Source: an uncultured candidatus Porisulfidus sp. (GTDB lineage Bacteria; Pseudomonadota; Gammaproteobacteria; Poriferisulfidales; Oxydemutatoraceae). From it: DNA of 64,000 nucleotides. The position numbers and the translations under genes were made by a program. The stretch lies in the NCBI GenBank assembly GCA_965215765.1, contig OZ244118.1, positions 2,415,801-2,479,800 of the forward strand, written 5' to 3'. Positions 1,441-61,039 of this stretch are shown piece by piece. Position 1 is the stretch's first letter. Each line of letters opens with the position of its first letter. A model generated the notes under the pieces. That model was not told the DNA's origin. It ran no database searches and saw nothing but the letters and a program-made list of their open reading frames with translations.

Positions 1441-3229
1441 CTAACACAGCCTTGATATGTGAAATAAATTTTGTGGCACCGAGAAAACCCACCAAGCGAT
1501 AGTTTTTCAACTCCCGGCCTTCGGTGTCAAAGAACAAGATCGCAGGTGGACCAAAAAGGTTGAATTTCTTCAATAAATCCTGGTCTTCCTGATTGTTTTC
1601 AGTGACATCCGCTTTGTACAAAACCAGGCTTGACAATGCTTCCTGAACCTGTGGATCGGAGAAAGTAAACGCCTCCATTTCTTTGCAGCTCACACACCAG
1701 TCTGCATAAAAATCCAGCATCAGCACTTGATTGGACTGCCCGGCCTCCTGAACGCGCGCTGCCAGAGCAGTCGTGGATTCTACAGTCTGGAAATCCAGCT
1801 TGTCTTGTTGCTGAAAGGACTGTGAAACCACCAGCGGTCTGAGCAGACTATGTCCGCCCGTCGCGGCTCCGGCAACCAGCAAAGTTCCATAAAGCAACAG
1901 GAGCAGCGAGATGCCGCGACCGAAGCTCAGCCAGCCTTGCGAAGGGGACGTAGCCTTTAAAACCCCATGGACGTAGGTTCCTGCAAAGATCAACAGGCAG
2001 CCGGTGAAAAACAATATCAGGAATGCGGGCAGAACTCTGTCAAGTAACCACAAGGCCACTCCCAGCATCAAGAAACCGAAGCTGGCGCGAGCCATGTCCA
2101 TGAGTGGGCCGGGCTTTGGCAGGAAAGAGCCCAGAGAGGTACCGAACACCAACAGGGGTATGCCCATTCCCATCCCAAGGCTGAAAAGCGCGATGGCTCC
2201 AGTCAGCGCGTCACCGGTTCGGGCAATAAACAGGAGTGCGCCAACCAAGGGTGCGGTGATGCAAGGCCCAACGATCAGTGCCGAGAGCCCCCCCATTACC
2301 GCCGCTCCAGGCAGACTGCCATTCTTGTTTTGACCCGCCAGCAAAGCAAAGCGGGTTTGCAGGCGGGCAGGCATCTGAAGTTCAAACAGACCAAACATCG
2401 ACAGTGCCAGAATGACGAATACCGCAGCGAAACTGAAGATCACCGCAGGCTTCTGGGACCAGATTTGAAAATTCTCGCCCCCCAGCCCGACGATCATTCC
2501 AAAAATGCTGTACACCACGGCCATTGCCAAAACGTAGCTCAGCGAAAGACTGAAAGCCCTTTTTGTGGTTTTGCGTTCGCCGCTCGTGATGATGCCACTC
2601 AGAATGGGCACCATGGGTAAGACACATGGCGTAAAAGCCAGCAATACTCCAAAACCGATGAACGCCAGAACAGTCAACAGGATGCTTTGGCTGACAAGCA
2701 AGTCGGCAACCCGACTTTGTTCCGACTGCGTGGATGACGGTACCGCAGGTGTTTTGTCGGTTCCAGCGGCCAAAGTAAAAAGCTTGTTAATGGGGGGATA
2801 GCAAATTCCCGCGTCAGCACATCCCTGGTAACTAACGGTGATCTCGGCAGTTTTGGCACTGGGGTTTTGCACCTCAAAAGGCACGAGGAGTTCACCTCTG
2901 AAAACGTTCACTTGGCCGAAATACTCATCGGTCAGTGTCTTCCCGGGCGGCAAGCCCATGGTGACCTCGCCCTGCTCGGAAACAATGCTGGTTTTATGGC
3001 GATACAGGTAGTAGCCCTCAGCGATCAGCCAGTCTGCAACAGTCCCCTGCGAGCTTTCCACGATACGCAAAACGAAGGCTTCATCAGGTGGCAGAAATTC
3101 ACTTTGCCCGTCATCCAGACCTTTCAGTTTCTCTAACAGAGAAGTCTCGGCACTGCTGAAGCCGGCAAAGCAGAACAAAAAAGCCAAAGCTGCCGCAACT
3201 TTTTTCACTGTGTCTCGTCCTCTACCCAT
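1418..3229 (-). CDS. dsbD: Thiol:disulfide interchange protein DsbD (N-terminal DsbD-alpha domain, CcdA-like membrane core, C-terminal thioredoxin domain)
   Basis: 603 aa. Signal peptide present. 'CADAGICYPP' alpha-domain Cys pair, 'TPCVLPMVPILSGII' and 'VGPCITAPLVGAL' membrane Cys motifs, C-terminal 'YADWCVSCKEME' thioredoxin CxxC. The cutA-dsbD linkage is classical. Confidence 0.92.
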   Translation of the reverse strand: MGRGRDTVKKVAAALAFLFCFAGFSSAETSLLEKLKGLDDGQSEFLPPDEAFVLRIVESSQGTVADWLIAEGYYLYRHKTSIVSEQGEVTMGLPPGKTLTDEYFGQVNVFRGELLVPFEVQNPSAKTAEITVSYQGCADAGICYPPINKLFTLAAGTDKTPAVPSSTQSEQSRVADLLVSQSILLTVLAFIGFGVLLAFTPCVLPMVPILSGIITSGERKTTKRAFSLSLSYVLAMAVVYSIFGMIVGLGGENFQIWSQKPAVIFSFAAVFVILALSMFGLFELQMPARLQTRFALLAGQNKNGSLPGAAVMGGLSALIVGPCITAPLVGALLFIARTGDALTGAIALFSLGMGMGIPLLVFGTSLGSFLPKPGPLMDMARASFGFLMLGVALWLLDRVLPAFLILFFTGCLLIFAGTYVHGVLKATSPSQGWLSFGRGISLLLLLYGTLLVAGAATGGHSLLRPLVVSQSFQQQDKLDFQTVESTTALAARVQEAGQSNQVLMLDFYADWCVSCKEMEAFTFSDPQVQEALSSLVLYKADVTENNQEDQDLLKKFNLFGPPAILFFDTEGRELKNYRLVGFLGATKFISHIKAVLDAQRKDV

Positions 3230-3531
3230 TCCTGGTACGCCCTTTCAGCCTGTACTTCTGAAAATATAATTTCCGGTAGATCGTATGGATGTCGCTTCTT
3301 GAGCAACTCCACAGTTCGCTGACAACTCTCAGAGGTGGTTTTGACACTGAGAACATACTCATGCTCCTGCTTCAATTCATTTTTCCATTGGTAAAAAGAC
3401 AGCACCCGCCCGGAAATCTGCGCGCATGCTGCAGCGTGTTTCTCCACCAGGAAAGCCGCAACCGACTCCGCATCCTCGCGTTTTGCGAAAGTGGATTTAA
3501 TGACGACCAGTCCCTTACTCATTACCATCTC
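3205..3531 (-). CDS. cutA: Divalent-cation tolerance protein CutA (108 aa). The long ORF-track N-terminal extension is rejected.
   Basis: C-terminal 108 aa 'MVMSKGLVVIKSTFAKREDAESVAAFLVEKHAAACAQISGRVLSFYQWKNELKQEHEYVLSVKTTSESCQRTVELLKKRHPYDLPEIIFSEVQAERAYQEWV' matches the CutA1 family. ATG at 3529-3531 on the minus strand. Position upstream of dsbD is canonical. Confidence 0.85.
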   Translation of the reverse strand, partial: EMVMSKGLVVIKSTFAKREDAESVAAFLVEKHAAACAQISGRVLSFYQWKNELKQEHEYVLSVKTTSESCQRTVELLKKRHPYDLPEIIFSEVQAERAYQEWVEDETQ

Positions 3532-3887
3532 TTGGTCTGAATTGGATTGTACACAACAATTGCCACCCAAACCCTTGCGACCTCTCATGCGAGCCGCCTG
3601 ACAGCCACTTTTCGCGCTCGCATCTCCTGACCCCGAACCCCCTCCCCTGATCCTGAAGAAAGCTTGTGGCACAAAAGAAGCCAGAAACCATTGACTGCTC
3701 CGCGTGAAAATGAGGCTCTGCCCCGCTGCCCAACTCTTCGACCCTGTGAAATGGAAGCAAATCCTGAATAATACCCTCGCTTTTCTCTGTCTCAAGTGAC
3801 GATTTCTGTCCAGTTTTGACAGAGAGCCGCCGGTGATTTTGTCAAAACAAGCCAAGCGCGCGCCACACTCTTCCCAATAAGACCGAC

Positions 3888-3918
3888 TTGCCACATAAGC
3901 CCTTGCCTTTGCTACAAT
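3888..3918 (+). promoter_or_regulatory. Candidate sigma70-type promoter for fxsA: TTGCCA-(19 nt)-TACAAT
   Basis: Hexamers read directly at 3888-3893 and 3913-3918, about 25 nt upstream of a GAGGG RBS and the GTG start at 3943. The spacer is longer than optimal. Confidence 0.3.
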
Positions 3919-3942
3919 GCCCAAAGTTAGAGGGAATGGATT

Positions 3943-4377
3943 GTGACTTTTCTGTTAATGATGGTGGTTCTGCCGCTTGTTGAGATTTATCTCTTCATCA
4001 TAGTCGGCGGCGCAATCGGTGCACTGACCACGGTACTGTGGTGCGTATTCAGTGCTTTCGCAGGTTTTTACGCCTTGCGTCATCACGGGCGGCAATCTGT
4101 CGCTCGCTATCGTGCCTCTATTGCTGAAGGAAGTAGCCCCACATACGATATTTTAAGCAGCATGCTGATTCATGTGGGCGGTGTGCTTTTGCTGGTTCCG
4201 GGGTTCATGACCGACGCTGCCGGCCTTTTATGCTTGCTCCGACTGAGCAGGGAGTTTATCATCCGGCTCGCTGTGAAGCGTGCTTCCGTTTCTGTAAACG
4301 GTTTTGGCTTTGGGGTTTCTCGCAAAAAAAGCAGGCGCAAAGAATTTCTCGAGGGAGAATACCGGCGGCGCGATTAA
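3943..4377 (+). CDS. fxsA: FxsA family cytoplasmic membrane protein (GTG start)
   Basis: 144 aa with two N-terminal TM helices, the conserved 'LLLVPGFMTDAAGLLCLL' FxsA motif, and a basic/acidic tail 'FLEGEYRRRD'. Confidence 0.8.
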   Translation: MTFLLMMVVLPLVEIYLFIIVGGAIGALTTVLWCVFSAFAGFYALRHHGRQSVARYRASIAEGSSPTYDILSSMLIHVGGVLLLVPGFMTDAAGLLCLLRLSREFIIRLAVKRASVSVNGFGFGVSRKKSRRKEFLEGEYRRRD

Positions 4378-4424: not shown

Positions 4425-5558
4425 TTGAGATCAGTGATGAGAATAGGCATCTCCAATGAAGCGCATGGTGATGAGCGACGTGTTGCGCTTGTACCGAGTA
4501 TCGTAGAAAAATTAAAGAAGGCAAAAGCGGAAGTTTTTGTCCCCGCTGGTGCAGGAGAAGCAGCACACTACCGTGACGACGCATACCTGAAGGCCGGTGC
4601 GACCGTTGTCGAAAAGACAGAAGAACTGGATGTTTTGTTTCGCATTTGCCCGCTTGCGGCAACAGAAGTTTCAGAACTGAAAAAGGGCAGCACCCTGATT
4701 GGCTTTTTGAACCCCATGGGGGATCGGGAAGTCATAGAGGCACTGTGCGAACGAGACATTAACAGCTTCTCTTTTGAATTGATGCCGCGCTCCACGAGAG
4801 CACAGTCCATGGATGCCTTGTCATCCCAGCGCTCAATAGCTGGTTACCGGGCGGTTCTGGAGGGAGCGAACTTACTCAGCAAGTTTTTGCCAATGCTGAC
4901 CACGCCAGCCGGGACTGTAAGACCGGCTCTGGTTTTGATCATCGGTGTGGGTGTTGCCGGCTTGCAAGCCATCGCAACGGCCAGACGCCTCGGAGCCATA
5001 GTAGAGGCTCAGGACGTACGCCCCGAGTCCCGGGAACAGGTTGAATCCCTGGGCGCAAAATTTATTTCCCCTGGATTGGAAGCGGGTGGCAGCGGCGGAT
5101 ACGCGCGGGAACTCACAGCTGAAGAAAAAGCAAAGCAGGGAGAGCTCCTTGCCAAGCATATTGCCAAAGCAGATATCGTGATTACGACCGCGGCGATTCC
5201 CAATCGCGTATCGCCAGTCATCGTGCGGGCTTCCGTAGTGGAAATGATGCGTGCAGGCTCGGTAATCGTCGACGGGGCGGCTGAAGGCGGCGGCAACTGT
5301 GAACTCAGCCAGCCTGGAAAAACCATCAGCCACAACGACGTGACCATTCACGCACCATTGAATCTGCCATCCCGAACCGCCACGCACGCGAGTGACATGC
5401 TGGCAAGGAATTTTTATAACCTGGCGCAATTGTTTATCGCTGAAGGTGAAATATCTTTTGACTGGGAAGACGACATTCTGGCCGGTTCCTGCATAACGCG
5501 TGACGGCAAAGTCTTGAATCCGCAGGTTCGCGAGTTCATGGAGGGAGAAAGCAAATGA
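4425..5558 (+). CDS. pntAA: NAD(P) transhydrogenase subunit alpha part 1 (dI, NAD(H)-binding; alanine dehydrogenase/PNT-like)
   Basis: 377 aa. Rossmann motif 'LIIGVGVAGLQAIATARRLGA'. ATGA overlap with the next gene. Split three-gene pnt organisation. Confidence 0.9.
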   Translation: MRSVMRIGISNEAHGDERRVALVPSIVEKLKKAKAEVFVPAGAGEAAHYRDDAYLKAGATVVEKTEELDVLFRICPLAATEVSELKKGSTLIGFLNPMGDREVIEALCERDINSFSFELMPRSTRAQSMDALSSQRSIAGYRAVLEGANLLSKFLPMLTTPAGTVRPALVLIIGVGVAGLQAIATARRLGAIVEAQDVRPESREQVESLGAKFISPGLEAGGSGGYARELTAEEKAKQGELLAKHIAKADIVITTAAIPNRVSPVIVRASVVEMMRAGSVIVDGAAEGGGNCELSQPGKTISHNDVTIHAPLNLPSRTATHASDMLARNFYNLAQLFIAEGEISFDWEDDILAGSCITRDGKVLNPQVREFMEGESK

Positions 5559-5872
5559 TTGAAGACTGGGCTGCCATACAGGGTCTTGCCGCATTGTATA
5601 TTTTTCTTTTGGCGGCCTTTACTGGTTACGAAGTCATAAACCGGGTTCCGGCGATTCTGCATACGCCGTTGATGTCCGGTTCGAATTTTGTCCACGGCAT
5701 CGTTCTGGTGGGAGCCATGGTTGCTTTGGGGCAGGCTGATTCAGATAGCACAGGTCAGCTTGTGATTGGATTTCTGGGTGTGGTTCTGGCGGCAGGAAAC
5801 GCAGTCGGCGGATACGTTGTCACCGAAAGGATGTTGCAAATGTTCAGTCGAACCAAAGCAAAAAAGCGATAA
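5555..5872 (+). CDS. pntAB: NAD(P) transhydrogenase subunit alpha part 2 (membrane dII segment)
   Basis: 105-aa hydrophobic protein between pntAA and pntB. Start overlaps the pntAA stop. Confidence 0.85.
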   Translation: MIEDWAAIQGLAALYIFLLAAFTGYEVINRVPAILHTPLMSGSNFVHGIVLVGAMVALGQADSDSTGQLVIGFLGVVLAAGNAVGGYVVTERMLQMFSRTKAKKR

Positions 5873-7340: not shown

Positions 7341-7877
7341 ATGAAACTCCTTCTCCTTGACCGTGACGGGGTCATCAACGAAGACGTTGGATATGTGAAA
7401 TCGGCATCTGAATGGCATGCACTACCTGGCAGTCTTGAAGCGATAGCACGCCTTAGCCAGAACGGCTGGTTTGTAACATTGGTATCCAACCAATCTGCCT
7501 TGGGCAGGAAAATCCTTTCTTTGGACAATCTGGCAGAAATCCAGGGAAAATTGCAAGCAGAGTCAGCTGCAACGGGAGCAGCCATAGCCGGACTGTCCTT
7601 TTGTCCCCACCTGCCAGACGCCGGTTGCGAGTGCCGCAAACCAGCCCCCGGGATGCTTCTGAACATTGCCAAAAGGCTGGATGTCAACCTGGCAGAAGTC
7701 CCATTCATTGGTGACAAGCTAAGCGACATACTTGCTGCCAAAGCTGCAGGGGCGCGCCCTATGCTGGTTTTGACAGGGCAGGGAAAGGAGGATGTAAAGA
7801 ACCCCGGCTTCCCAAGTGATGTCCCTGTTTACCAGGATTTGGCAGAAGCCACGGACCAACTGTTATCCGCTCACTAG
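7341..7877 (+). CDS. gmhB: D-glycero-beta-D-manno-heptose-1,7-bisphosphate 7-phosphatase (HAD-IIIA, histidinol-phosphatase-like)
   Basis: 178 aa. 'LLLDRDGVIN' HAD motif I, 'CxHxxxxxCxCRKP' Zn-binding motif ('CPHLPDAGCECRKPAPGM'), 'IGDKLSDILAAKAAGA' motif III. Confidence 0.85.
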   Translation: MKLLLLDRDGVINEDVGYVKSASEWHALPGSLEAIARLSQNGWFVTLVSNQSALGRKILSLDNLAEIQGKLQAESAATGAAIAGLSFCPHLPDAGCECRKPAPGMLLNIAKRLDVNLAEVPFIGDKLSDILAAKAAGARPMLVLTGQGKEDVKNPGFPSDVPVYQDLAEATDQLLSAH

Positions 7878-8930
7878 ACCCGTTTCCAGGATCCAAAAAC
7901 GTAGCCTGGCTCAGCAATTGCGTGCTGCGCGCTGTACCCGAAGACGCGTATCAAGCTATGTGTTTTTTGCGGGTACCCTGGCCGGACGAAATCTGGCAGA
8001 AATCCAGGGAAAATTGCAAGCAGAGTCAGCCGCAACGGGAGCAGCCATAGCCGGACTGTCCTTTTGTCCCCACCTGCCAGACGCCGGTTGCGAGTGCCGC
8101 AAACCAGCCCCCGGGATGCTTCTGAACATTGCCAAAAGGCTGGATATCGACCTGGCAGAAGTCCCATTCATTGGTGACAAGCTAAGCGACATACTTGCTG
8201 CCAAAGCTGCAGGGGCGCGCCCTATGCTGGTTTTGACAGGACAGGGAAAGGAGGATGTAAAGAACCCCGGCTTCCCAAGTGATGTCCCTGTTTACCAGGA
8301 TTTGGCAGAAGCCGCGGACCAACTGTTATCCGCTCACTAGACCCGTTTCCAGGATCCAAAAAACGTAGCCTGGCTCAGCAATTGCGTGCTGCGCGCTGTA
8401 CCCGAAGACGCGTATCAAGCTATGTGTTTTTTGCGGGTACCCTGGCCGGACGAAATCTGGCAGAAATCCAGGGAAAACTGCAAGCAGAGTCAGCCGCAAC
8501 GGGAGCAGCCATAGCCGGACTGTCCTTTTGCCCTCACCTTCCAGACGCCGGTTGCGAGTGCCGCAAACCAGCCCCCGGGATGCTTCTGAACATTGCCAAA
8601 AGGCTGGATATTGACCTGGCAGAAGTCCCATTCATTGGTGACAAGCTAAGCGACATACTTGCTGCCAAAGCTGCAGGGGCGCGCCCCATGCTGGTTTTGA
8701 CAGGACAGGGAAAGGAGAATGTAAAGAACCCCGGCTTCCCAAGTGATGTCCCTGTTTACCAGGATTTGGCAGAAGCCGCAGTCCAACTGTTATCCGCTCA
8801 CTAGACCCGTTTCCAGGATCCAAAAAACGTAGCCTGGCTCAGCAATTGCGTATCGCATGCTGTACCCGGAAACGCATATCAAGCTATGCGTTTTTGCGGG
8901 TACCCTGGTCGGAAGAAATCTGACAGGCGG
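7531..8930 (+). repeat. Tandem triplication, about 462-bp unit (copies 7531-7993, 7994-8454, 8455-8915, then about 15 bp of a fourth). Each copy carries the 3' 115 codons of gmhB plus about 120 bp of downstream sequence.
   Basis: Near-identical blocks read directly. ORFs 7816..8340 and 8382..8804 are read-through frames that re-enter the duplicated GmhB C-terminal frame ('...AEIQGKLQAESAATGAAIAGLSFCPHLPDAGCECRKP...LLSAH'). Confidence 0.9.
8870..8895 (+). terminator. Candidate intrinsic terminator: 9-bp stem aaacgcata / tatgcgttt, 6-nt loop, followed by a T-run
   Basis: Read directly in the last (most distal) repeat copy. The corresponding hairpin is imperfect in copies 1-3. Confidence 0.35.
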
Positions 8931-9300
8931 GAGTATCGGCGCAAGTTATGCCGGAGCTCGGTGTCAGGAGCAGTTCGGGCGGGTGGTCTGGTCGCAGACA
9001 ACCAAGGCTAGGTGACTGACAGTTACACAACAACTTCTGTGACCGGGAAAGGTCTGGTCGCGGGTCTTGTGGCAAACAATCAGGGTGCCGTCAGCTGTAG
9101 GGGCGCGGTAGGGTCAGTGTCCGGAGCCGGACAGCCCGGAAGTTTTGCCGGCAGCAGTCCGAGTCCGGGAGGCATTGCCGACAGCTACGCGTAGGTTGCC
9201 TCGCGTCAATGGTGGCAGTGTGCCTTTTGTGGAAGATGACGTCGGGCAGGCATCAGACTTTCTGCCGAGTCTCGTGCCTGACGGCACCCGGTTGACTACC
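8925..9300 (+). pseudogene. Decayed fragment (about 370 bp, multiple stops) of a giant GLUG-repeat gene. Plus-strand orientation, fused to the end of the gmhB repeat array.
   Basis: Translation 'VTGKGLVAGLVANNQGAVS.RGAVGSVSGAGQPGSFAGSSPSPGGIADSYA*' aligns to the 'FVTGEGLVAGLVADNQGTVSRSYAAGSVSGAGQPGSFAGSSSGGIADSYAAALPR..' segment of the paralogs at 24.4-64 kb. The downstream portion is degenerate. Confidence 0.75.
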
Positions 9301-9310
9301 TGTTGACGGG

Positions 9311-9814
9311 CTAAACGTCTCCTGCGGCGGCTCTGGCGAGCTCCGATTCGATGGCTCTCAGGGCTGCGTTATAAGTATCAATGCTTTTACCGCCAGCCTT
9401 GGTAACGTCTTTCACCATTCCCCAAGCGTGGTTCAGTCCCTTTTGCACGGCGGAATTCTCACCGACAGGCATCTCGCTTTTAATCGCTTCTTCCAGACCG
9501 TGCAATGTTTTTTCTCTTTCCGCAGTTTGCGCATCGGGAAAAATCAGATCTTTGACAAAGGAGATTATCCAATCAACCGGCCCTTGCGGCCCTCTGTCAA
9601 TGCGTGGGTTTCCGTTTTTATCGATGAACAACTCGGGCGCAAACCCGCTTCCTGACCTTTCGAGTTTTCCGATTGCTTCCCGAAAGCCGGCAAGCCCTCT
9701 CTTCTGTGAATAATCATATCTGGCGGTGTTCACGCTTGGTGTCGCGTGTCTGGCTCCTATTACCGGGTGTGGCATTGTGCTTCTCCTTTCGTCCGTGGTT
9801 GCATCACCGCTCAA
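9311..9814 (-). CDS. Hypothetical protein (167 aa; possible start at MPHPVIG, coordinate 9776). No recognisable family.
   Basis: Open frame co-oriented with the downstream aldo/keto reductase. No motif recognised from sequence alone. Confidence 0.4.
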   Translation of the reverse strand: MSGDATTDERRSTMPHPVIGARHATPSVNTARYDYSQKRGLAGFREAIGKLERSGSGFAPELFIDKNGNPRIDRGPQGPVDWIISFVKDLIFPDAQTAEREKTLHGLEEAIKSEMPVGENSAVQKGLNHAWGMVKDVTKAGGKSIDTYNAALRAIESELARAAAGDV

Positions 9815-9883
9815 TCTCGCTTAATTGTCAGGTTGCTGATTGAGCAAAACAATAGGGTTCTATTGTACCACTGACTCGCCTGT

Positions 9884-10921
9884 TTACGGAGCCGGGAAGG
9901 GGAAACTCGTGTGTACGGCCTCTATTTTTTCAATCAGTTCCTGATCCAGCTTTATGTCTGCGGTTCCGATATTGTCTCGCAGCTGTTCCATTGTCGTCGC
10001 CCCAACAATGGTTGAAGTCAAAAACTTCCTTCCATTGACCCACGCAAGCGCCAGTTGGGCGGGGCTCAAGCCTGCGTCTTTGGCAATGCGCACATATTGC
10101 TCGGTGGCCGCTATGGAGTTGGCACCCAAATAACGCTGAAAATGAGGGTGAAGAGTCAGCCTCGCATCCTTTGGTTTCTGGTCTTGTAAGTACTTGCCGG
10201 TCAGCACGCCAAAGCCCAGAGGTGAGTAAGCCAGCAAACCGGTTTTCTCACGATGCGCAAATTCCGCCAAGCCCACCTCAAAGGAGCGGTTCAGGAGGTT
10301 GTATGGATTTTGCACGCTCACAACACGAGGCCACCCCCGTTGTTCAGAAAGTCTCAGGTAGCTTGCAACCCCCCAGGCGGTTTCATTGGCTATTCCGATA
10401 TGTCGAACCTTCCCTTGAGATACTGCGTCTGCCAAGGCTTCCAGCGTTTCTTCCAATGGGTCAGCTTGCTCGTCTTCACTGTATGGATAGCACAGGGTGC
10501 CAAAAAAATTGGATGTGCGTGCCGGCCAGTGCACCTGATACAGATCAACATATTCCGTCCCCAGACGTTCGAGGCTTTTTTCAAGAGCCAGGCTCACTTG
10601 CTCTTTTGTCAGACGCGGACCTCCGCGTACAAAAGTCGTCCAGGTGGATGGTCCTGAGACTTTGGTTGCCAGGCAAACCTCGTTCCTTGTGCCGCGCTTC
10701 TTCAGCCATCTGCCGATAATCCTTTCGGTGTCTCCGTATGTGCCTGCCGACATCGGAACAGGGTATATTTCTGCAGTATCAAAGAAATTCACTCCCTGAG
10801 TCAGGGCATAATCCATTTGTTCGAAAGCCTCGCTTTCGGAATTTTGTTCACCCCAAGTCATTGTGCCAAGGCAAATCAGACTAAGTTGCAAGTCCGTATC
10901 GCCTAATTTTCTGTATTCCAA
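9884..10921 (-). CDS. NADP(H)-dependent aldo/keto reductase, Tas/YajO-like
   Basis: 345 aa. 'LGDTDLQLSLICLGTMTWGE...FDTAEIYP' AKR N-terminal signature and 'AYSPLGFGVLTGKY'. Confidence 0.85.
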   Translation of the reverse strand: MEYRKLGDTDLQLSLICLGTMTWGEQNSESEAFEQMDYALTQGVNFFDTAEIYPVPMSAGTYGDTERIIGRWLKKRGTRNEVCLATKVSGPSTWTTFVRGGPRLTKEQVSLALEKSLERLGTEYVDLYQVHWPARTSNFFGTLCYPYSEDEQADPLEETLEALADAVSQGKVRHIGIANETAWGVASYLRLSEQRGWPRVVSVQNPYNLLNRSFEVGLAEFAHREKTGLLAYSPLGFGVLTGKYLQDQKPKDARLTLHPHFQRYLGANSIAATEQYVRIAKDAGLSPAQLALAWVNGRKFLTSTIVGATTMEQLRDNIGTADIKLDQELIEKIEAVHTSFPFPAP

Positions 10922-11110
10922 TTTAGCTCCTCCCTGTCAGTTAATCCAAACAAGCTATATGCTATACCATCTGTCCATGGTATCTCAATTTGAGACTGCC
11001 AAACGAACAAAACTGGCGAAGCACTCGTGTGATTCGCAACAAAATACCAAGATGAACGCACAAGGTGCAACGAGGCGGGTCGGCTTCGAACCGCGGCTTT
11101 CCCGGCTTTT

Positions 11111-13015
11111 ATGTGGGGTGCGATTGACATCGCAAAAATCTTCAGGGACGTGAAATTCTTGGCTGGTACTCTTACTTTTCTTGCTTCCCGGTTCTTGCCT
11201 TTTCGTTCCTGGTACCGGGAACTCGGTGAGCCTGGTGTAATGCGGGCAGACGTGGTGGCCGGCATCACGGTTGCCATGCTGCTGATTCCGCAAGCGATGG
11301 CGTACGCGCAATTGGCTGGCCTGCCTGTTTACGTGGGTCTGTATGCCGCTTTTTTTCCGGTCATGGCGAGTGGGCTGATGGGGTCACTGCGACAGCTGGC
11401 AACTGGTCCGACAGCAATTGGCTCCTTGCTGACTTTGTCTGTCATTGGCCCTCTGTCCGGAGGCGATCCCATACTTTTTCTGACTTTGGCAACCATCCTC
11501 GCCATCATGGTCGGAACCATTCAGATCACATTAGGCATGTTGAGCATGGGGCGGCTGGTGGTATTTCTTTCACACCCGGTTTTGCTGGGGTTCACCAATG
11601 CTGCTGCGATTACGATCGTCTCTTCCCAGATTGGCAATATTTTCGGCGTTGAGAAGACGACTGCGGATGCGAGTTATCAAGTGCTGGGGAACACCTTGAT
11701 GGCGATTACCGAGGGTTTCAGCACTCCCACTTTGCTCATGGCCTCCGCCGCTTTGCTGGTTATTCTGTTTTTGCAAAAGTACCTGCCAAAAGTACCTGCT
11801 GTGCTGGTGGCGGTCTTGCTGACCGGGCTGGCTTCCTGGCTCTTTGAATACGAAAAGGGCAGTGGTGGCGCAGTCGTTGGCCACGTGCCAATGGGGTTGC
11901 CATCTTTACAGGTTCCGGACATTAACCTCTCTGCCCTGTCCGCCATGCTGACCATGTCTTTTGTAATCGTGCTGACCGGCTTCACTGAAGCCATTTCCAT
12001 TTCCAAAATAGCGGTGGCGCGTACCCGACAAAAAATGAACGTAGACCAACTCTTGATCGGACAGGGATCGGCCAACGTGGTCTCGGGTCTGTTCCAGGGA
12101 TATCCTGTTTCCGGTTCTTTTTCCCGTACCGCCTTAAACCTGACTACCGGAGCGCGTACTGGCTTCTCCTCAATCGTAACTGCGTCGGTAGTTGGCTTGG
12201 TACTGGCTTTCCTGACTTCGAGTCTGTACCACTTGCCGCAAGCCACTTTGGCAGTCGTGATTATGATCTCTGTCGGCAGCCTCGTTAATATCCGCCCGTT
12301 CCTTGCTGTCTGGCGTGTGCAAAAACTTGAGGGAGTCATCGCTTTGATCACTTTCGCCACTACGATCTTTTCGGCACCACACATACAGTACGGGATCGTC
12401 ACAGGAGTTCTCTTGTCGCTATGCTTGCAAATTTACCGCGCCATGCAGCCAAAAACGGTGGTGGTCTCACGCAACCCGGATGGCTTTCTGGCTGACGCCA
12501 GCCAAAGTCTGTTGCAACTTTGTCCAAAAATTTCGCTGCTACGTTTTAACGCTCCCCTGCATTTTGCCAACACGGAATACTTCGAAAGAAAAGTGCTGGA
12601 ACGGGTGGCGGCGGCACCCGAATTACGGGTCATGATCATTGATGCGGTCGCAATGAATGACGTGGACTCCACAGGAGCGGAAATGTTGCGCAGGCTGGTT
12701 GACACCTTGCACGTGTCAGGAATTGAATTTTTGGTCGTCAGGCCACAACCGCGCTTGCAAAAGATTCTGCAACGTTCGGGGTTGACAGATCATGGGCTCA
12801 GGCATCCTCTTTTCCGAACCCGCGAGGCCGCGCTGAAGCATGCCTGGCAATTCCTGAAAACGGATGACAAAAAATGCCCTCTGAAGAGTTGCAAGGCGCA
12901 AGACTTCAGTGCTTGTATTTTGCAAAAGAAAGTGCCGCCGAAGCCGTCTCCTGAACAAGAACCAGACGACCAGGGGAATCACCGGAAAGAAAAGAAAAGC
13001 CTTGCAGCTCAGTAG
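11111..13015 (+). CDS. SulP-family anion (sulfate/bicarbonate) permease with C-terminal STAS domain
   Basis: 634 aa. 'DVVAGITVAMLLIPQAMAYAQLAGLP' SulP signature, multi-TM core, C-terminal STAS-like region 'ELRVMIIDAVAMNDVDSTGAEMLRRL'. Confidence 0.85.
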   Translation: MWGAIDIAKIFRDVKFLAGTLTFLASRFLPFRSWYRELGEPGVMRADVVAGITVAMLLIPQAMAYAQLAGLPVYVGLYAAFFPVMASGLMGSLRQLATGPTAIGSLLTLSVIGPLSGGDPILFLTLATILAIMVGTIQITLGMLSMGRLVVFLSHPVLLGFTNAAAITIVSSQIGNIFGVEKTTADASYQVLGNTLMAITEGFSTPTLLMASAALLVILFLQKYLPKVPAVLVAVLLTGLASWLFEYEKGSGGAVVGHVPMGLPSLQVPDINLSALSAMLTMSFVIVLTGFTEAISISKIAVARTRQKMNVDQLLIGQGSANVVSGLFQGYPVSGSFSRTALNLTTGARTGFSSIVTASVVGLVLAFLTSSLYHLPQATLAVVIMISVGSLVNIRPFLAVWRVQKLEGVIALITFATTIFSAPHIQYGIVTGVLLSLCLQIYRAMQPKTVVVSRNPDGFLADASQSLLQLCPKISLLRFNAPLHFANTEYFERKVLERVAAAPELRVMIIDAVAMNDVDSTGAEMLRRLVDTLHVSGIEFLVVRPQPRLQKILQRSGLTDHGLRHPLFRTREAALKHAWQFLKTDDKKCPLKSCKAQDFSACILQKKVPPKPSPEQEPDDQGNHRKEKKSLAAQ

Positions 13016-13017
13016 CC

Positions 13018-13752
13018 TCACACGCGCTGGAACTGCAAGTGACAGGTCGCCCTTCCCTTCTTGAGAGCTTTCGCTTCAAAACGGGTACTGACCCACCAGT
13101 GCGGCGGGCGGCAAAAACCATCCTTGCTTTGAGACAGGTTTCGCAAATGCGCACTGCTGTGCAAGACGCCAAGCATGTAGTCGGCGTAGTCTCGTTCATC
13201 AGTCACCAGGTACAGCAGGGCACCCTTTCCAAGCACCTGTTCCAGCAGAGGCAGTAAATCCGGACTGACCAGACGGCGTTTGTGGTGGCGGCGTTTAGGC
13301 CAAGGATCGGGAAACAGGATCAGCATCCTCGCGCAACTTCCCGCCGGAAGTAATTCCGCGAACACTCTCCTCGTGTCTCCGTGGAATATTTTCAGGTTCT
13401 TTAAGCCCAGCTCTTCAGCCCTCATCATGAGCCGGGCGATGCCGGAGCGAAAGACTTCAACCCCCAAAAAATTTTCATCCGGATTATTTTGCGCCAGAGA
13501 TACCAAGGTTTCGCCGTTGCCAAAACCTGCTTCGACCGTGAGAGGGGTATCTGCGGCGAGCCAGCTATTCGCGAGCAAAGAGGAGGTTTCCGGTAGCTGG
13601 TAGTTCTTCCAGTGTTTGTCCCAGGCTTTTTTCTGGGCATTTTTGAAGTGTCTGCCACGGAGCACGAAGCTGGGCAAGTAGCGATATCTGTCAGGGGTTT
13701 GATTGACCTGTTTGCGCCGCAGAATCGCGGCTGACATTTTCGCGGTCGGCAA
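13018..13752 (-). CDS. trmB: tRNA (guanine46-N7)-methyltransferase
   Basis: 244 aa. 'VEAGFGNGE' SAM motif and 'LFPDPWPKRRHHKRRLV' TrmB signature. Confidence 0.88.
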   Translation of the reverse strand: MPTAKMSAAILRRKQVNQTPDRYRYLPSFVLRGRHFKNAQKKAWDKHWKNYQLPETSSLLANSWLAADTPLTVEAGFGNGETLVSLAQNNPDENFLGVEVFRSGIARLMMRAEELGLKNLKIFHGDTRRVFAELLPAGSCARMLILFPDPWPKRRHHKRRLVSPDLLPLLEQVLGKGALLYLVTDERDYADYMLGVLHSSAHLRNLSQSKDGFCRPPHWWVSTRFEAKALKKGRATCHLQFQRV

Positions 13753-13779
13753 TGCTGTGGTTTTTGGCAGACGAAGCGC

Positions 13780-14586
13780 TCAGTCGAGCAGTCCTGTTTC
13801 AGGCGAAGAACTGCTGGCAAAGCGACGCTTTGTCATGCGTCCGGCCAGGTAGGCAGCACGTCCTGCCTGTACTGCCAGATTCATGGCATGTGCCATAGTT
13901 ACAGGTTTCCTGGCCATCGCGATTGCGGTGTTCATCAACACGCCGTCGCAGCCAAGTTCCATCGCAATGGCAGCGTCCGAAGCAGTTCCAACTCCGGCAT
14001 CCACAATTACCGGCACCCGCGCGTTCTCTACAATGCTGCGAATATTGCCCGGATTGCGGATACCCTGCCCTGAGCCTATCGGTGCGGCCAAGGGCATCAC
14101 AGCCGCGCAGCCGATTTCTTCAAATCGTGTCGCCATAACGGGATCGTCGTTGGTGTACACCATCACCTTGAAGTCTTTCCGGATCAGCAGTTCTGCTGCT
14201 TCCAGCGTCTGTATGACATCCGGAAACAAGGTTTTTTGATCAGCGAGCACCTCCAGCTTGACAAAAGAATGTCCGAGCAATTCACGCGCGAGCAAGCACA
14301 CACGAACTGCGCTTTCTGCCGTGTAGCAGCCAGCCGTGTTCGGAAGAATGAACCAGCGATCCGGGCCCAGTGTTGACAACAGATCCGGTTCTTTTGTGGC
14401 ATGTTCCAAATTCATTCGGCGCAAGGCGACGGTCACAATCTCGGCTCCGGAAGCCAGCACTGCCGCTTTGCTTTCTTCCAGATCCCGGTATTTTCCGGTT
14501 CCAACCAAAAGACGCGAAGTGAACGATTTATCGGCAATAAGCAGTTTTTCAGTCATCGGCAATTCCCGCTGTTTTCCATGTCTCAT
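13780..14586 (-). CDS. thiG: Thiazole synthase ThiG. Alternative, likelier start [12 protein letters not shown] at 14556.
   Basis: '[19 protein letters not shown]' and '...[14 protein letters not shown]' ThiG family signatures. Immediately downstream of thiS. Confidence 0.9.
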
Positions 14587-15329
14587 CCCCGTTAACCGCC
14601 ACCAATAGCCCGAACAATTTCAACCGCATCGCCATCTTCGAGAATACATTGATCGTATTCATCGCACGGTACAATCTTGCGGTTCACTCTTCCAGATCCC
14701 GGTATTTTCCGGTTCCAGCCAAAAGGCGCGAAGTGAACGATTTGTCGGCAATAAGCAGTTTTTCAGTCATCGGCAATTCCCGCTGTTTTCCATGTCTCAT
14801 CCCCGCTAACCGCCGCCAATAGCCCGAACAATTTCAACCGCATCGCCATCTTTGAGAATGCATTGATCGTATTCATCGCACGGTACAATCTCGCGGTTCA
14901 CTCTTCCAGATCCCGGTATTTTCCGGTTCCAGCCAAAAGACGCGAAGTGAACGATTTATCGGCAATAAGCAGTTTTTCAGTCATCGGCAATTCCCGCTGT
15001 TTTCCATGTCTCATCCCCGCTAACCGCCACCAATAGCCCGAACAATTTCAACCGCATCGCCATCTTCGAGAATGCATTGATCGTATTCATCGCACGGCAC
15101 AATCTCGCGGTTCACTCTTCCAGATCCCGGTATTTTCCGGTTCCAGCCAAAAGGCGTGAAGCAAACGATTTGTCGGCAATAAGCAGTTTTTCAGCCATCG
15201 GCAATTCCCGCTGTTTTCCATGTCTCATCCCCGCTAACCGCCACCAATAGCCCGAACAATTTCAACCGAATCGCCATCTTCGAGAATGCATTGATCGTAT
15301 TCATCGCACGGCACAATCTCGCGGTTCAC
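14474..15329 (-). repeat. Four tandem 214-bp units. Each spans the thiS 3' end (last ~35 codons incl. ...VRAIGGG*), the 20-bp intergenic spacer and the thiG 5' end (first ~33 codons). The outermost copies are the genuine gene ends.
   Basis: Marker 'tcatcggcaattcccgctgttttccatgtctcatcccc' recurs at 14553, 14767, 14981 and 15195. Homology begins at 14474 inside thiG and ends at 15329 inside thiS. Confidence 0.9.
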
Positions 15330-15434
15330 TTCGGCGGCAAATAATTGCCCGTCAAGATCCAGCTTGCCAAGTAATCCCCCGAGGGTCAGCCCTTGGGGAT
15401 ATTCGTTCTGATGCCCGTTTAACTTGAGATTCAT
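15234..15434 (-). CDS. thiS: Sulfur-carrier protein ThiS (66 aa, C-terminal GG)
   Basis: 'MNLKLNGHQNEYPQGLTLGGLLGKLDL...[14 protein letters not shown]' with the typical ThiS length and GlyGly terminus. The longer ORF-track frame is rejected. Confidence 0.85.
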   Translation of the reverse strand: MNLKLNGHQNEYPQGLTLGGLLGKLDLDGQLFAAEVNREIVPCDEYDQCILEDGDSVEIVRAIGGG

Positions 15435-15674
15435 GATCCTTTCTGCCTGGCCAAAGTCAGCGTTTATGACCTTCCTCGCTATACTACCCGAAGTCTTTGT
15501 CAGGCCTTTGTGCAGTCGTGGCTCCTGCCTGAGAAAAACTACTTCTGTGCCGAAAAAAGAACCTGTTCGCTCCGCATGATTCGACCCGATGACTTTTACA
15601 AGCTCGAACAAAAACTTCTTATGGCCAAGGCTGTCAGCGACCTTTCATCTTGCTTTCTGCCACGGTGATTTTCC

Positions 15675-16739
15675 GTGAGCTTTGAAATGCCCCACCGTTG
15701 TCTGGTTGTAGGCGGCGGCGTACTGGGTCTGTTTACGGCTCTCAAGCTTCGCAAGCTGGGCTGGCAAGTGACTTTGCTGGAGAAACAAAGCCTGGGAGCC
15801 GGGGCGAGCTCGGCTGCAGGCGGGATCCTGAGCCCGCTGTACCCTTGGCGGCAAAGCCGGAAAATAAATTGCCTGTTCAGCCAGTCTCTGTACGCATACC
15901 AGAGATTCTTTCGGGAAACAGCGGCATTGGGGATGAGAGTGGCTTATTCCCAACCGGGCTTGTTTTGCCTGGATGTTGAAGAGCACCCCATGGCGCGCAA
16001 GTGGGTCGCATCCCGACACCTTTCCCTGGAAACATGGCCTCGCCGGCGACTGCGTGCCGTCTTTCCGCGCTTGCGCGCTGGCAGTGGCTTTTTTCTGCCG
16101 GATGTTTGCCAAGTAGATCCGGTCAATTTAATTGCCAGGCTGACGCAACTGGCGACTCATCATGGGGTTCGTATTCGTGAAAATATGTCAGTCCGAAAAT
16201 TGCTGCTGCGCAACCGTATGGTTGGCGGCGTGATTTGCGAGCGAGAAGAAATTCGCGGTGATGCCGTCGTGATTTGCGCTGGCGCATGGTCTAAAGAGCT
16301 GATTCCCACAGCACAAAAATGGTGCCCGGTACGCCCCGTAAAAGGACAAATCATCGAGTACCGTACAAAACCGGGACTATTGCCACATATCGTGTTGCAC
16401 CGTGGAAAGTATTTAATTCCCAAACCGGACGGACGGATTCTTGCCGGCAGCACTTTGGAAAATTCCGGCTTTGACACCACACCGACATCCGCCGCTCGCG
16501 TCGAACTGGACAGCTTTGCCAGGAGCGTTCTTCCAGGACTTTCCATATACAAAATATCTGATCAGTGGGCAGGGTTGCGCCCCGGACTCGCCACGCCCTT
16601 CGTGGGGGCACATCCCGATATTAAAGGCCTTTTTCTCAATACCGGACACCACCGCAATGGAATCGTGCTGGCATCCGGCTCAGCAGACTGGATTGCTGCG
16701 GCGTTTGCACGGCTAATCCTCAGAAACAACCCGGCTTGA
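15675..16739 (+). CDS. thiO: Glycine oxidase ThiO (FAD-dependent)
   Basis: 354 aa. 'CLVVGGGVLGLFTALKL' FAD-binding motif. Divergent from thiS-thiG, as in many beta/gamma-proteobacterial thi loci. Confidence 0.8.
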   Translation: MSFEMPHRCLVVGGGVLGLFTALKLRKLGWQVTLLEKQSLGAGASSAAGGILSPLYPWRQSRKINCLFSQSLYAYQRFFRETAALGMRVAYSQPGLFCLDVEEHPMARKWVASRHLSLETWPRRRLRAVFPRLRAGSGFFLPDVCQVDPVNLIARLTQLATHHGVRIRENMSVRKLLLRNRMVGGVICEREEIRGDAVVICAGAWSKELIPTAQKWCPVRPVKGQIIEYRTKPGLLPHIVLHRGKYLIPKPDGRILAGSTLENSGFDTTPTSAARVELDSFARSVLPGLSIYKISDQWAGLRPGLATPFVGAHPDIKGLFLNTGHHRNGIVLASGSADWIAAAFARLILRNNPA

Positions 16740-17426
16740 ACTTTTTGCCTGCTACGCCACGGCTCGGAGCCAGCTCGGAGCCATCCCGGAGTCGTTCCGG
16801 TGAAGCGCGCTGCCTGTCGCAACATCCGGCTCAGCAGACTGGATTGCTGCGGCGTTTGCACGAGGCTAATCCTCAGAAGCAACCCGGCTTGAGCTTTTTG
16901 CCTGCTGTATACCGGCTTCGGAGCCATCTTGGAGCCGTTCCGGTGAAACGCGCTGCCTGTCGCAACATCCGGCTCAGCAGACTGGATTGCTGCGGCGTTT
17001 GCACGGCTAATCCTCAGAAGCAACCCGGCTTGAGCTTTTTGCCTGCTGCGCCACGGCTCGGAGCCATCTTGGAGCCGTTCCGGTGAAACGCGCTGCCTGT
17101 CGCAACATCCGGCTCAGCAGACTGGATTGCTGCGGCACTTGCACGGCTAATCCCCAGAAGCAACCCGGCTTGAGCTTTTTGCCTGCTGCGCCACGGCTCG
17201 GAACCAGCTCGGAGCCATCTCGGAGCCAGCTCGGAGCCAGCTCGGAGTCGTTCCGGTGAAACGCGCTGCCTGTCGCAGCATCTGGCTCAGCAGACTGGGT
17301 TGCTGCGGCGTTTGCGCGGCTAATCCTCAGAAGCAACCCTGCTTGAGCTTTTTGCCTGCTGCGCCACGGCTCGGAGCCATCTCGGAGTCGTTCCGGTGAA
17401 GCGCGCTGCCTGTCGCAACATCTGGC
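16672..17426. repeat. Tandem array of about 140-150-bp units (about 5 copies, one 181 bp with internal gagccagctcg sub-repeats). Each repeats the last ~22 codons and stop of thiO. The array fills the whole gap between convergent thiO and the ATPase gene.
   Basis: 'catccggctcagcagactggattgctgcggcgtttgcacggctaatcctcagaagcaacccggcttga' recurs at 16672 (genuine), 16823, 16966, 17106 and about 17287, with a truncated copy at about 17418. Confidence 0.88.
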
Positions 17427-35406: not shown

Positions 35407-38400
35407 TCAGCGAATCATACCGCCCAGGAATACCCTCAGGCGCAATTTCTTGACGTGATGCGGACCTGGTCTCGGCGTTGTCGGGATCTCGGGATCCCAG
35501 TTGATAAATTGACTCACTCCTGGCAGCTCAGCCACGCTGTCCCGAGGGAATGCCCGGACTTCGTACGCGACACCGCCCTGCAACCCCGTAAATTCCATCC
35601 TGACGGCTCCCCCGGGCGTCGGCATCGCAACAGACTGTTCCTCTATCAGTTCCCCGTATGAAAGCAGTTGTACCCGATACCCCAAGCCGAGCAATATTCC
35701 GTCAACCGGGGCTCCGAAATCAGCATGATCCGCAGTGCGTCCATAGCCATCATTCCCCGAATATTGCAAGTGTACCTGCACACGACCATTCGCCTTGTGC
35801 ATCAGCTGCATGGCCAATGTTCCCTCAAGAACGTCGAGCAAGGTAAATGCTGCTGTGCCCATCGCGCCCGTTCCGGCGCGGTTGACTGCCCGGAGCGAAT
35901 AGCGTATCTGCTCTCCTCCTGCGTGCTTCTTGCGCAGCTGCACCACGACATGGCCTGACAACACATAAGAAGTGGCGGTTCCCGAGACGGGGTGGCTTTT
36001 TCCGTCCACAAAAAGCTGGTAGCTGTCTATCGTCGCCCCGTTGCTGCTCGCCGCTTCCCAACTCAGGTTCACCCGATCTGCGGACTTCCACCTGGCTCGC
36101 AAGCCCGAAGGTCTGCCAGGCACCGCTATGGTGCTGAACGCGCTTCTGTTTTCGGATGCCTGGGCGGGCTCCCCGGTGCCAGCCCGGTTGCGTGCATAGA
36201 CCTGTAACGAATAGCTTCTCTTCGGCAGCAAGTCGGTGATCTCAATCTCGGTGTCAAAAGCACCTGCCGAGAAAAAGGTCTCGGTGCTGCGTCCTCCAGC
36301 ACTCACCACCACCACGTAGCCAAAACCGGAGCCTGCAACGCGATCAGAGGAAGACGCAAGCGCATCACCCGCCAGGGGAGCGCAATCGTCATGTCCCATG
36401 ATCATCAACACCAGGCGCGCAGTGGTTTGCCCGGGCACCAGCTCCGTTATCGTCGTCGCGCCCGGAAGACCGGGCAAATAGAAATGACCGACCGCCGGAT
36501 AGCCAGCGACATCTCCGCGCACAGCGCGAAGACGGTACGGGTGGGGGCAAGCCCCCTGGCTGTTTTTCCGAAACTCAGCCAGAAAATCTCCGTTGAAGTC
36601 AAAAGTCGGTGCTGTGACTTCCCGTATTGTTCCTGCCAGTTCAAGTTCGTACGAATCAACCGCTGGACTTCCCGCCGCCCAAGTAAAGCGCAGATGATCC
36701 GGAGATTCCCAGCTCACCGCCAAATCAACCGGTGCGGCAGGAATGTCGACAAGCGCGCGCAGCAAGGGCAACGTGCGGGTATTGCCAAAATGCCAGGCTC
36801 CCGGTTCCCAGCCGGCATAAGTCGTGGCACCTGCGCATCTTTGCCCCGCCGCAGTCGGGCAACGCAGCTGGGTCAGAGTGCGAGGTAAAGCACCTTCCGT
36901 CAAGCCACTGCCCACCAAAGATGCCTGTGCAGACACGGGTGCGTAACTGCGATCAATCACCGCATCCGGAGCAGAATAACCCGCCAGACTCCCGGTGCTG
37001 CCCGATTCCCCAACAACCCTGTTCGCTGCATAGCTGTCCTGTATGCGGCGGATATTGTTTCCGACCAGTCCCCCGATAGAGAAATGACCCCGCACCTCAC
37101 CGAGTGCATAGCTCGCATGGACAGAACCCGAGTTGATGCCCACCAGTCCGCCAACACGGCTATCTCCGCTGACCGACACGTCGGCATAGCTGTAGGCAAT
37201 GGTGCTTCCGCTGTAGCCGACCAGACCGCCGGCGCGCGAGCCGTCCACAGCGATGGCCGAACCTGTCGCGTAACAGTGCAAAATCGTGCTTCCCTGGCTA
37301 TAGCCAACCAGACCGCCAGCATTGTCCCGCCCTTCACCCGTGACGCGCACCGCCGCATCGGCACTGCTGTGCAAAATAGCGGCTCCCAGAGCCAGACCGG
37401 CCAGACCACCGGCAGACTCAAGCGCGCTTACTTGCGAAGCCCTCACCGTGCTGCCCACGACCCGACCTTTTGCTTTCACATAACCGACCAGACCGCCGAC
37501 GTATCTGCCCCCGCCAACCTCGGCACTGGCACCACTGTTGATCAACAATCCTCCGTTGCCACCCGCCAGCCCGCCAATGTTGAGCCCGGCTCTGTTGCCG
37601 GAAATCTGTGCGGACTTCACAACGCTGTTCATGACGGTTCCGTCGTTAAAGCCGACCAAGGCTCCGACGCTGTTTTTTCCTTTTACCCACGCATCAACGA
37701 GCACCACATCTTTGACGATCCCGTCTATTGCAACTCTGGAAAACAGGCCAACCGTATCCGTCTCCGGGCGGTTAATGTGCAGAGCAGAGATTTGCCGCCC
37801 TGCCCCGTCGAAAGTGCCTGAAAAAGGCTCTATCGGATGAAAACCGGCGCCGCCTGACCACTCCCGACTCGACCGGGCGTCAATATCTGCCACCTGCACA
37901 TAGTGAGCGTGCAGATCAGAGCGCACATCCTGCAGTTGGCACAACGTGCCAATTTGCCACGGGTTGTCGCCGCTGCCGTCACCCTGCGCACTTTTCAGAC
38001 CCTTGCCGGCGCATCCCGGAAAGCGGGTCACCGACCCGGATCGTTGACGGCGATCCGGTGCCCACCGTGTTATGGGCGAAGGCTTCCAGCCGATATGCAA
38101 AGGCACTTTTAAGCTCCGTAAATTCCATTGTGACCGGGCTCAGAGGACTCCCCAGCGGAATGTCGCGTTCTTCAACCAGCTCCCCGGACGCATACAGATG
38201 TATCCGGTAAGCCAGGTGCAAAGCCATGGCTTCCGCTGACGTTGCGTAATCAGCGTCACCCGGTTTGCGACCGTAGCCGTCATTGGCCGGGGCTGTAAAA
38301 CTGAGTCTCAGCGTGGAGACCCCCGGCACCACGTGCATATCAGCCGGAGAACCAGGAACATCCAGCAGGCGCACGGAAACACGGGCAGCTTCGCCAACAC

Positions 38401-60700: not shown

Positions 60701-61039
60701 TCCCAGCACGGCTGTACGCGCCGAAAAATCACTTAGTGGGTTAATTGTACAAAATAACGCCCAATCCGGCAAATTATTATTAAGAAGATACCGACCCCAT
60801 CCGACCGGAAAACCCCGAAAACAGTGCCAAGGCGTACTGTCTTATTTGTGGGCTTTTTGGTCTACAAGGGGTTGAATCAGTGGCAATAGTCGGCACTGCG
60901 ACTTCCTGTTTTTAACCGCGAAAAACGTGAAAGTTGGTATTTGCAATTCGTATGATTTCAGTTTTGTGACAGCTTCCAAAGTTCACCAAAAGCCCCAATT
61001 CAAGACCTGTTGTTTTAAGACAATTCAACAGTTGTGCTT

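Follow-up and report, generated by a model that had tools for sequence, protein, structure and literature searches.

Ehrlichia ruminantium carries a tandem-repeat load called 'highest reported for bacteria' (Riegler et al. 2012, PMC3287509, Table 4): repeats detected by Tandem Repeats Finder (TRF) make up 6.3% of its genome, and their mean period is 138.7 bp. The corresponding genome-wide values are 0.38% in Escherichia coli and 0.9-1.6% in Wolbachia (PMC3287509). In E. ruminantium, units of ~150 bp are added or removed, according to PMC6547736 (citing Frutos) and PMC10710844. In the variable-number tandem repeats (VNTRs) of Wolbachia, internal short direct repeats and a hairpin are thought to promote slipped-strand mispairing (PMC3287509). 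Here we describe a tandem array that lies between thiO, which encodes a glycine oxidase, and a convergent gene for a PilB/GspE-family ATPase in a 64-kb stretch of contig OZ244118.1 (positions 2,415,801 to 2,479,800) from an uncultured Candidatus Porisulfidus sp. This whole stretch is hereafter called the window, and positions are its coordinates unless another contig (L001 to L008) is named. The array is best read as a locus-specific minisatellite (VNTR) that arose by tandem duplication seeded by microhomology and was then altered by slippage or unequal exchange, and we estimate the probability of this reading at roughly 0.8. The evidence comprises the anatomy of the array, its single-copy state in relatives, the flanking microhomology, a hypervariable copy number, and missing RNA, terminator, coding, and mobile-element signatures.

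Segmentation by blastn resolved the array into five head-to-tail units of 151, 143, 140, 173, and 140 bp over 16672-17418; together with a partial sixth copy of 13 nucleotides (nt), the array totals 760 bp (16672-17431). TRF reported a period of 140 with 93% matches and a score of 756, and repeat finding and alignment placed the unit starts at 16672, 16823, 16966, 17106, and 17279. A 28-nt segment taken from the unit is present five times, whereas shuffled sequences predict 0.00 occurrences. The array and the two genes that it joins are laid out as follows.

15675-16739, + strand: thiO (glycine oxidase; FAD-dependent DAO family), Pfam DAO 2.2e-65.
16672-16822, + strand: unit 1, 151 bp; the genuine thiO 3' end, a weak hairpin with T5, an 11-mer tract, and the distal spacer.
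16823-16965, + strand: unit 2, 143 bp; a copy of the thiO tail and spacer without a start codon.
16966-17105, + strand: unit 3, 140 bp; identical to unit 5 of the L008 array.
17106-17278, + strand: unit 4, 173 bp, the long unit; the excess consists of extra GCTCGGAGCCA copies (4.7 at 17196-17247).
17279-17418, + strand: unit 5, 140 bp.
17419-17431, + strand: terminal 13-nt partial copy, CATCTGGCTCAGC; the right-breakpoint microhomology, holding the ATPase stop and last codon.
17427-18626, - strand: PilB/GspE-family (T2SSE) ATPase gene, 399 amino acids (aa), Pfam T2SSE 4.4e-116; convergent with thiO.

Unit 1 begins 65 nt before the thiO stop codon (68 nt with the stop counted), and the stop itself, TGA at 16737-16739, falls within this unit, leaving thiO intact. 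At the other end, the ATPase stop (TCA on the + strand, 17427-17429) is contained in the final 13-nt partial copy. TRF located the nested 11-mer, GCTCGGAGCCA, at 16762-16791 and 17196-17247; the remaining window units carry 2 to 3 copies of it, compared with the 4.7 of unit 4. Head-to-tail units in this range of tens to hundreds of bp, found by both TRF and blastn, are those of a VNTR or minisatellite. A preliminary description of the locus had reported about five tandem units starting inside thiO, an array occupying the entire convergent gap, and two convergent genes that both terminate inside repeat sequence; the units were recovered by TRF, repeat finding, alignment, and blastn segmentation, and the filling of the gap and the positions of both stops agree with the unit coordinates compared with the open reading frames (ORFs). 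The long unit with an internal 11-mer triplet given in that description exists, but it measures 173 bp rather than 181 bp and holds 4.7 copies of the 11-mer. Likewise, the truncated last copy at the ATPase stop is real, but it runs through the stop and takes in the last codon too, so that it ends at 17431 rather than 17426.

The relatives of this locus carry the unit once or lack it. A scan of genome contigs yielded one true relative, the sister species L001 (OZ243039.1), which is the 1.92-Mb chromosome of a Ca. Oxydemutatoraceae metagenome-assembled genome (Gammaproteobacteria); its ThiO is 89% identical to that of the window, and it is collinear with window positions 9267-27504 at 89-91% nucleotide identity. 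In L001, the two genes are separated by a 75-bp gap (thiO end at 11041, ATPase stop at 11117), and one copy of the unit is present. This copy lies between GCATCCGGCTCAG, found at 10997 within thiO codons, and GCATCTGGCTCAG, found at 11108 across the ATPase stop; the two match at 12/13 positions and are 111 bp apart. These bounding 13-mers correspond to the first 13 nt of the window units and to the window's terminal partial copy. Repeats of this quality (12/13) with a spacing of 50-300 bp are scarce in L001, where 14 diagonal hits were found in 21 kb, mostly within other repeats. In the more distant L005 (ThiO 79% identical; a 2.0-Mb circular contig), the thiO-ATPase gap is 66 bp and holds no array, and the two 13-mer sites agree at only 6/13 positions. 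Each unit thus consists of the thiO tail together with the entire ancestral thiO-ATPase spacer, and the breakpoint positions explain why the array fills the gap and why both genes end in repeat. The origin is also local to a single locus, as in a VNTR: the unit is made of the locus's own gene tail and spacer, it is single in L001, and the window holds no further copy of it. Searches of Joint Genome Institute (JGI) metagenome contigs gave no match to ThiO peptides or to a 26-nt thiO-tail pattern. Two further contigs, L002 and L003, were rejected as relatives, being unrelated DAO enzymes at 28% identity, and were kept solely as repeat-load controls.

Copy number varies widely among close strains. 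Four contigs of the same species (L004, L006, L007, and L008), with ThiO ~98% identical to that of the window, come from one European Nucleotide Archive metagenome assembly (ERZ25071281), whose reads are probably long, judging from contig names of long-read-assembler style. By blastn segmentation, the array has 5 units in the window, 7 in L008, 10 in L007, 12 in L006, and 12 in L004. The flanks (1 kb on the thiO side and 3 kb on the ATPase/secretin side) show 98.2-100% identity and not one gap over 4 kb, so that the copy number (5, 7, 10, 12, and 12) varies amid conserved flanks, as is characteristic of a VNTR. The array's existence had earlier been made dependent on its presence in long-read data; it holds, as the array is found, with other copy numbers, in these four independent contigs, subject to the reading of their names.

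The alleles differ in order and composition as well as in number. L006 and L007 agree in their thiO flanks, which are identical, and in the first five units, and diverge afterwards; the L004 array contains a two-unit block duplication; and the window and L008 share one identical and one near-identical unit. Across the arrays, units are 140 to 198 bp long, with most of the variation due to the 11-mer number, and composite units reach 221-283 bp. One such composite unit, of 283 bp in L007 (5764-6046), has taken in ~70 nt from the 3' coding end of the ATPase gene, with a 9-nt microhomology (ACCAGCTTC) at the junction, and a similar unit in L004 (12381-12601) carries such a piece joined in the same way, which means that breakpoints also fell inside the ATPase gene. 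The four alleles, which come from one metagenome assembly (ERZ25071281) and may belong to co-existing strains or to a changing clone, show that copy number varies within a population, as it does in variable tandem repeats of the E. ruminantium type.

Under microhomology-seeded duplication, the duplicated segment would have been ~110-140 bp long, comprising the final 65 nt of thiO, its stop codon, and all of the ancestral spacer, and flanked by a 13-nt direct repeat, CATCYGGCTCAGC, with one copy in thiO codons (ASGSA) and the other across the ATPase stop. The first duplication would have resulted from misalignment of the two 13-mers, by slipped-strand mispairing or unequal exchange. Once two copies were present, further slippage or unequal recombination would gain and lose whole units and blocks of units, and the partly palindromic nested 11-mer would slip independently, giving the variation in unit length. 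Later events used other microhomologies, and the breakpoints of further arrays or events lie at direct repeats of 9-10 nt and of 1 nt. Slippage or unequal exchange is the probable mechanism, as far as sequence scars can indicate. Duplications across a gene end would leave one intact gene at the array edge and would therefore survive selection, which could explain why arrays begin inside genes. The complete genes are attached to the outermost copies only, so that thiO and the ATPase gene stay intact and the internal copies are presumably inert gene-end fragments. In all likelihood the array is neutral or close to it, its probable sole effect being to push the convergent genes 0.7-1.9 kb apart.

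Some observations weigh against this account. The 13-nt microhomology is long for a chance match, and the outgroup L005 agrees at only 6/13 positions; either a collapsed array or the ancestral state could thus account for the single copy in L001, so that the direction of change is uncertain, and the low similarity in L005 may leave space for earlier homogenisation. In addition, units within one array differ by 5-12%, far above the divergence of the strain flanks (~1%), which indicates that the array is old and persistent and not merely recent noise; some selective maintenance is possible.

One alternative reading is a functional terminator or insulator array, in which reiterated unit signals would secure bidirectional termination between thiO and the ATPase gene; we regard this as unlikely. 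The location exactly between convergent genes would suit such a role, as would the mini-hairpin with T5 in each unit and a GC-rich hairpin in each unit's 11-mer tract (DNA fold z of -1.5 to -1.9 for two-copy tracts). However, a consensus scan of 16672-17431 detected no terminator on either strand, and the sole terminator-like feature is weak, namely a 4-5-bp hairpin (AAGC-N6-GCTT, GAGCTTTTTG) followed by T5 at the thiO stop (~16725-16747) on the + strand, which recurs in every unit. The minus strand of the unit has no U-tract, and the signature of a bidirectional intrinsic terminator, in which a stem rich in GC and no shorter than 5 bp precedes a U-tract on both strands, was not found. The preliminary description had proposed that the unit be folded in both orientations for terminator hairpins, and the RNA folds were no better than those of shuffled sequences (z -0.54 and +0.43). 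For 44 units, the covariation term of RNAalifold was positive on both strands, which counts as a penalty and gives no sign of covariation, and an Rfam search of the unit returned 0 matches at E<=1; the unit therefore lacks the Rfam match, or the fold beating shuffles with covariation, that would mark a structured RNA. Furthermore, only 66-75 bp separate the genes in the relatives, near-identical strains carry anywhere from 5 to 12 copies, and equivalent arrays occur in non-convergent contexts (the thiS-thiG operon junction and gene 5' ends).

The assertion of the preliminary description that bidirectional termination must occur within the array consequently found no positive support, since the terminator scan, folds, covariation, and Rfam search were all null and the relatives manage with a gap of 66-75 bp. 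Transcripts end or collide somewhere in the array, trivially, and nothing indicates that the array exists for that; as a bidirectional-termination device, it appears unsupported by its sequence. As single-stranded DNA (ssDNA), the 11-mer tract has only a marginal tendency to form hairpins (z -0.3 to -1.9), and the slippage argument is not based on it.

A contingency-type regulatory locus, in which selected copy number would tune thiO or the pilus/secretion ATPase through 3' untranslated region length, antisense overlap, or mRNA stability, is likewise improbable. It would accord with a copy number that is hypervariable within one metagenome, with persistence long enough for 5-12% unit divergence, and with the placement of some arrays at the 5' ends of giant genes that resemble those of surface proteins, a position in which repeat number could plausibly act on regulation. 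Nevertheless, the consensus scan found 0 promoter-like sites in the array, no conserved structure was detected, and comparable arrays adjoin housekeeping genes of unrelated function (thiO, thiS/thiG, and gmhB).

A dispersed mobile or repetitive element (a miniature inverted-repeat transposable element (MITE), a repetitive extragenic palindrome or bacterial interspersed mosaic element (REP/BIME), or an element like the mycobacterial interspersed repetitive units (MIRU)), an array like clustered regularly interspaced short palindromic repeats (CRISPR), or a repeat-protein gene is very improbable. The tandem structure and the ORFs of 100-180 aa that cross the array, called as genes in L004, L006, and L007, could be taken in favour of such origins. 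However, the unit derives from the locus itself and is found nowhere else in the 64-kb window, where the other arrays consist of unrelated unit sequences, and the occurrence at many unrelated loci that typifies dispersed repeats (REP/BIME, MITE, or MIRU) was not seen within it. The full 140-bp period is repeated with no unique spacers, contrary to a CRISPR-like arrangement, and the called ORFs match no Pfam family. Because the unit lengths (140, 143, 151, 173, and so on) are not multiples of 3, no lasting reading frame runs through the array. Finally, a mis-assembled or over-expanded repeat is scarcely credible: assembly errors typically occur at repeats, and the sequencing technology of the window is not stated, but the units differ in substitutions and in 11-mer number and so are not stuttered identical copies, the array stands in four other independent contigs with a partly common unit order, and its 760 bp are far below long-read length.

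The assignments of the flanking genes are as follows. Homologues of the window ThiO carry the name glycine oxidase ThiO, and thiS and thiG adjoin the gene; the NCBIfam model TIGR02352 (ThiO) is the top match at 236.6 bits, slightly below its cut-off of 250.8, and gene callers on related contigs place the thiO start at 15687 (350 aa). The ThiO C-terminus is not conserved: owing to a 1-nt indel in the repeat-unit region (window 16705-16739 compared with L001 11030-11041), the L001 protein stops 8 codons sooner (…AAAFTR*) than that of the window (…AAAFARLILRNNPA*), and window unit 2 carries a further 2-nt insertion at the same spot. The ATPase scores below the cut-offs of the NCBIfam PilB/GspE models, and a secretin gene lies upstream of it.

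18633-20219, - strand: secretin gene, upstream of the ATPase gene; Pfam Secretin 1.9e-43.

The window contains at least eight arrays, and 14% of it is occupied by arrays of non-coding type. Those other than the thiO array include the following.

36-908: 149-bp array, ~6 copies; TRF reports 314-908 only, and blastn extends it to 36.
7527-8926: three copies of 464 bp, covering the 3' part of gmhB and the downstream spacer.
14474-15330: four copies of 214 bp at the thiS-3'/thiG-5' operon junction.
45445-47337: five copies of 377 bp.
58451-60720: six copies of 377 bp.
34691-35065: a single copy of the 377-bp segment.
47806-48349 and 61188-61901: 181-bp arrays, just upstream of the 377-bp arrays.

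These arrays repeat the pattern of the thiO array in other gene contexts (thiS/thiG and gmhB), and the 464-, 214-, and 140-bp units are each present as a single copy in L001. The 149-bp array extends into the 3' end of a gene for a ResA/TlpA-like thiol-disulfide oxidoreductase (856-1440, - strand). The 464-bp array starts in gmhB (D,D-heptose 1,7-bisphosphate phosphatase, 7341-7877) and duplicates its 3' two-thirds; the resulting partial copies in L004 and L008 are called as separate HAD-hydrolase genes (136 aa and 97-99 aa). Internal units of the 214-bp array present a decoy thiG start with a frame of ~38 codons that meets a TGA exactly at the unit junction; five copies of this unit are found in L008, and the thiG-thiS gap varies among L004, L006, L007, and L008.

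At its three paralogous positions, the 377-bp segment reaches from upstream sequence into the 5' end of giant genes that are paralogues of one another, and repeat number in front of these surface-protein-like genes could affect their expression. Four segments (24382-27504, 35375-38498, 48389-51512, and 61910-63998) match L001 17919-21038 at ~85% identity and are spaced 11-13.5 kb apart. They form a higher-order tandem of giant genes on the minus strand, with ORFs of 3498, 899+2561, 1327+2181, and at least 683 aa; two of the genes seem to be split by a frameshift or stop. The giant genes contain internal coding repeats of 78 nt (26 aa), and their homologues on related contigs have faint Glug/fn3 matches.

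We measured repeat load with the TRF settings of Riegler et al. 2012 (PMC3287509). Repeats make up 21.2% (summed) or 17.9% (union) of the window, a 64-kb sample rather than a genome; the corresponding content is 7-8% in the L001 and L005 loci and 0.2-0.8% in the two unrelated control loci. The relatives have arrays of their own: L001 carries them at 3145-4302 and 17155-17654 (106/301 bp in 3.7-7.7 copies, and two copies of 245 bp), and L005 at 5491-5702 and 15973-17200 (2.1 copies of 100 bp, and five copies of 244 bp), all of which are single copy in the window. Since both L001 and L005 hold lineage-specific arrays, the tendency to form arrays is family-wide and recurrent rather than a single event. 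The window ThiO is identical to P0122, which is encoded on a contig of 2,997,607 bp; the sister genomes measure 1.9-2.0 Mb.

As a microhomology-seeded VNTR, the thiO array is ordinary and very clearly documented, and its kind is already known. Its value lies in being a clean natural example of the birth of a bacterial minisatellite, in which the sister species has kept the pre-duplication or collapsed state together with the 13-nt microhomology, and five alleles of 5 to 12 units record the gain and loss of units, block duplication, 11-mer slippage, and capture of a neighbouring gene end. There is also a practical warning: such arrays give rise to false ORF calls and to extra copies of gene-end fragments, and short-read assemblies of these symbionts will break at them. 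More tentatively, the thiO array may be one symptom of a state shared by the lineage as a whole, with the highest bacterial tandem-repeat load yet seen, in which gene-end minisatellites and giant-gene cassettes of 11-13 kb amplify freely, a proposal that we consider possible but doubtful. If true, this state could help to explain a genome of ~3.0 Mb compared with 1.9-2.0 Mb in the sister species, would generate hypervariable alleles within a single host, and would indicate a defect or peculiarity of replication or repair, for example, the loss of an ssDNA exonuclease or of mismatch repair. It would then constitute a second independent natural system for the birth and maintenance of bacterial minisatellites. 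A load possibly beyond that of E. ruminantium, in a different bacterial class and host association, would be of interest for symbiont genome evolution and repeat instability.

Regarding known systems, our literature search on such arrays in Oxydemutatoraceae/Oxydemutator or sponge symbionts returned nothing relevant. Intrinsic bidirectional terminators resemble the thiO array in their placement between convergent stops and in the small hairpin with a T-run beside the thiO stop; they differ in that the stem here is only 4-5 bp, no tract is found on the opposite strand, the terminator scan was null, and reiteration is not a terminator trait. RecA-independent slipped misalignment (Lovett 2004 Mol Microbiol, as cited in PMC6547736) is closer: in the account given there, breakpoints lie at short direct repeats (13 nt here), whole units with microhomology are involved, and subsequent gain and loss occur in whole units. 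The mechanism is, however, experimentally defined in E. coli according to that account, whereas in the present case it is suggested by sequence scars.

The Wolbachia repeats VNTR-141 and VNTR-105 are likewise intergenic minisatellites of a symbiont, with periods of 141 and 105 bp, copy numbers of 0.8-7.3 in very close strains, and single-period alleles in some strains (PMC3287509). In contrast to the thiO array, whose units differ by 5-12%, their periods are ~98-99% identical within and between strains (concerted evolution); they are not described as duplicating flanking gene ends, and the genome repeat load is just 0.9-1.6%.

The closest known phenomenon is the set of ~150-bp non-coding variable tandem units of E. 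ruminantium, with which the thiO array has in common the unit size and non-coding character, whole-unit gain and loss, variation among close strains, and, in the surrounding window, an unusually high repeat load. The E. ruminantium repeats reportedly also duplicate and truncate gene ends. The organisms differ, E. ruminantium being an obligate intracellular alphaproteobacterium with 27-29% GC and the present one a sponge-associated gammaproteobacterium (Ca. Oxydemutatoraceae) with ~53% GC, and the load of the window is higher at the same TRF settings (21% summed, 18% union), although a 64-kb sample is here compared with a genome. Overall, the resemblance is one of process and not of ancestry.

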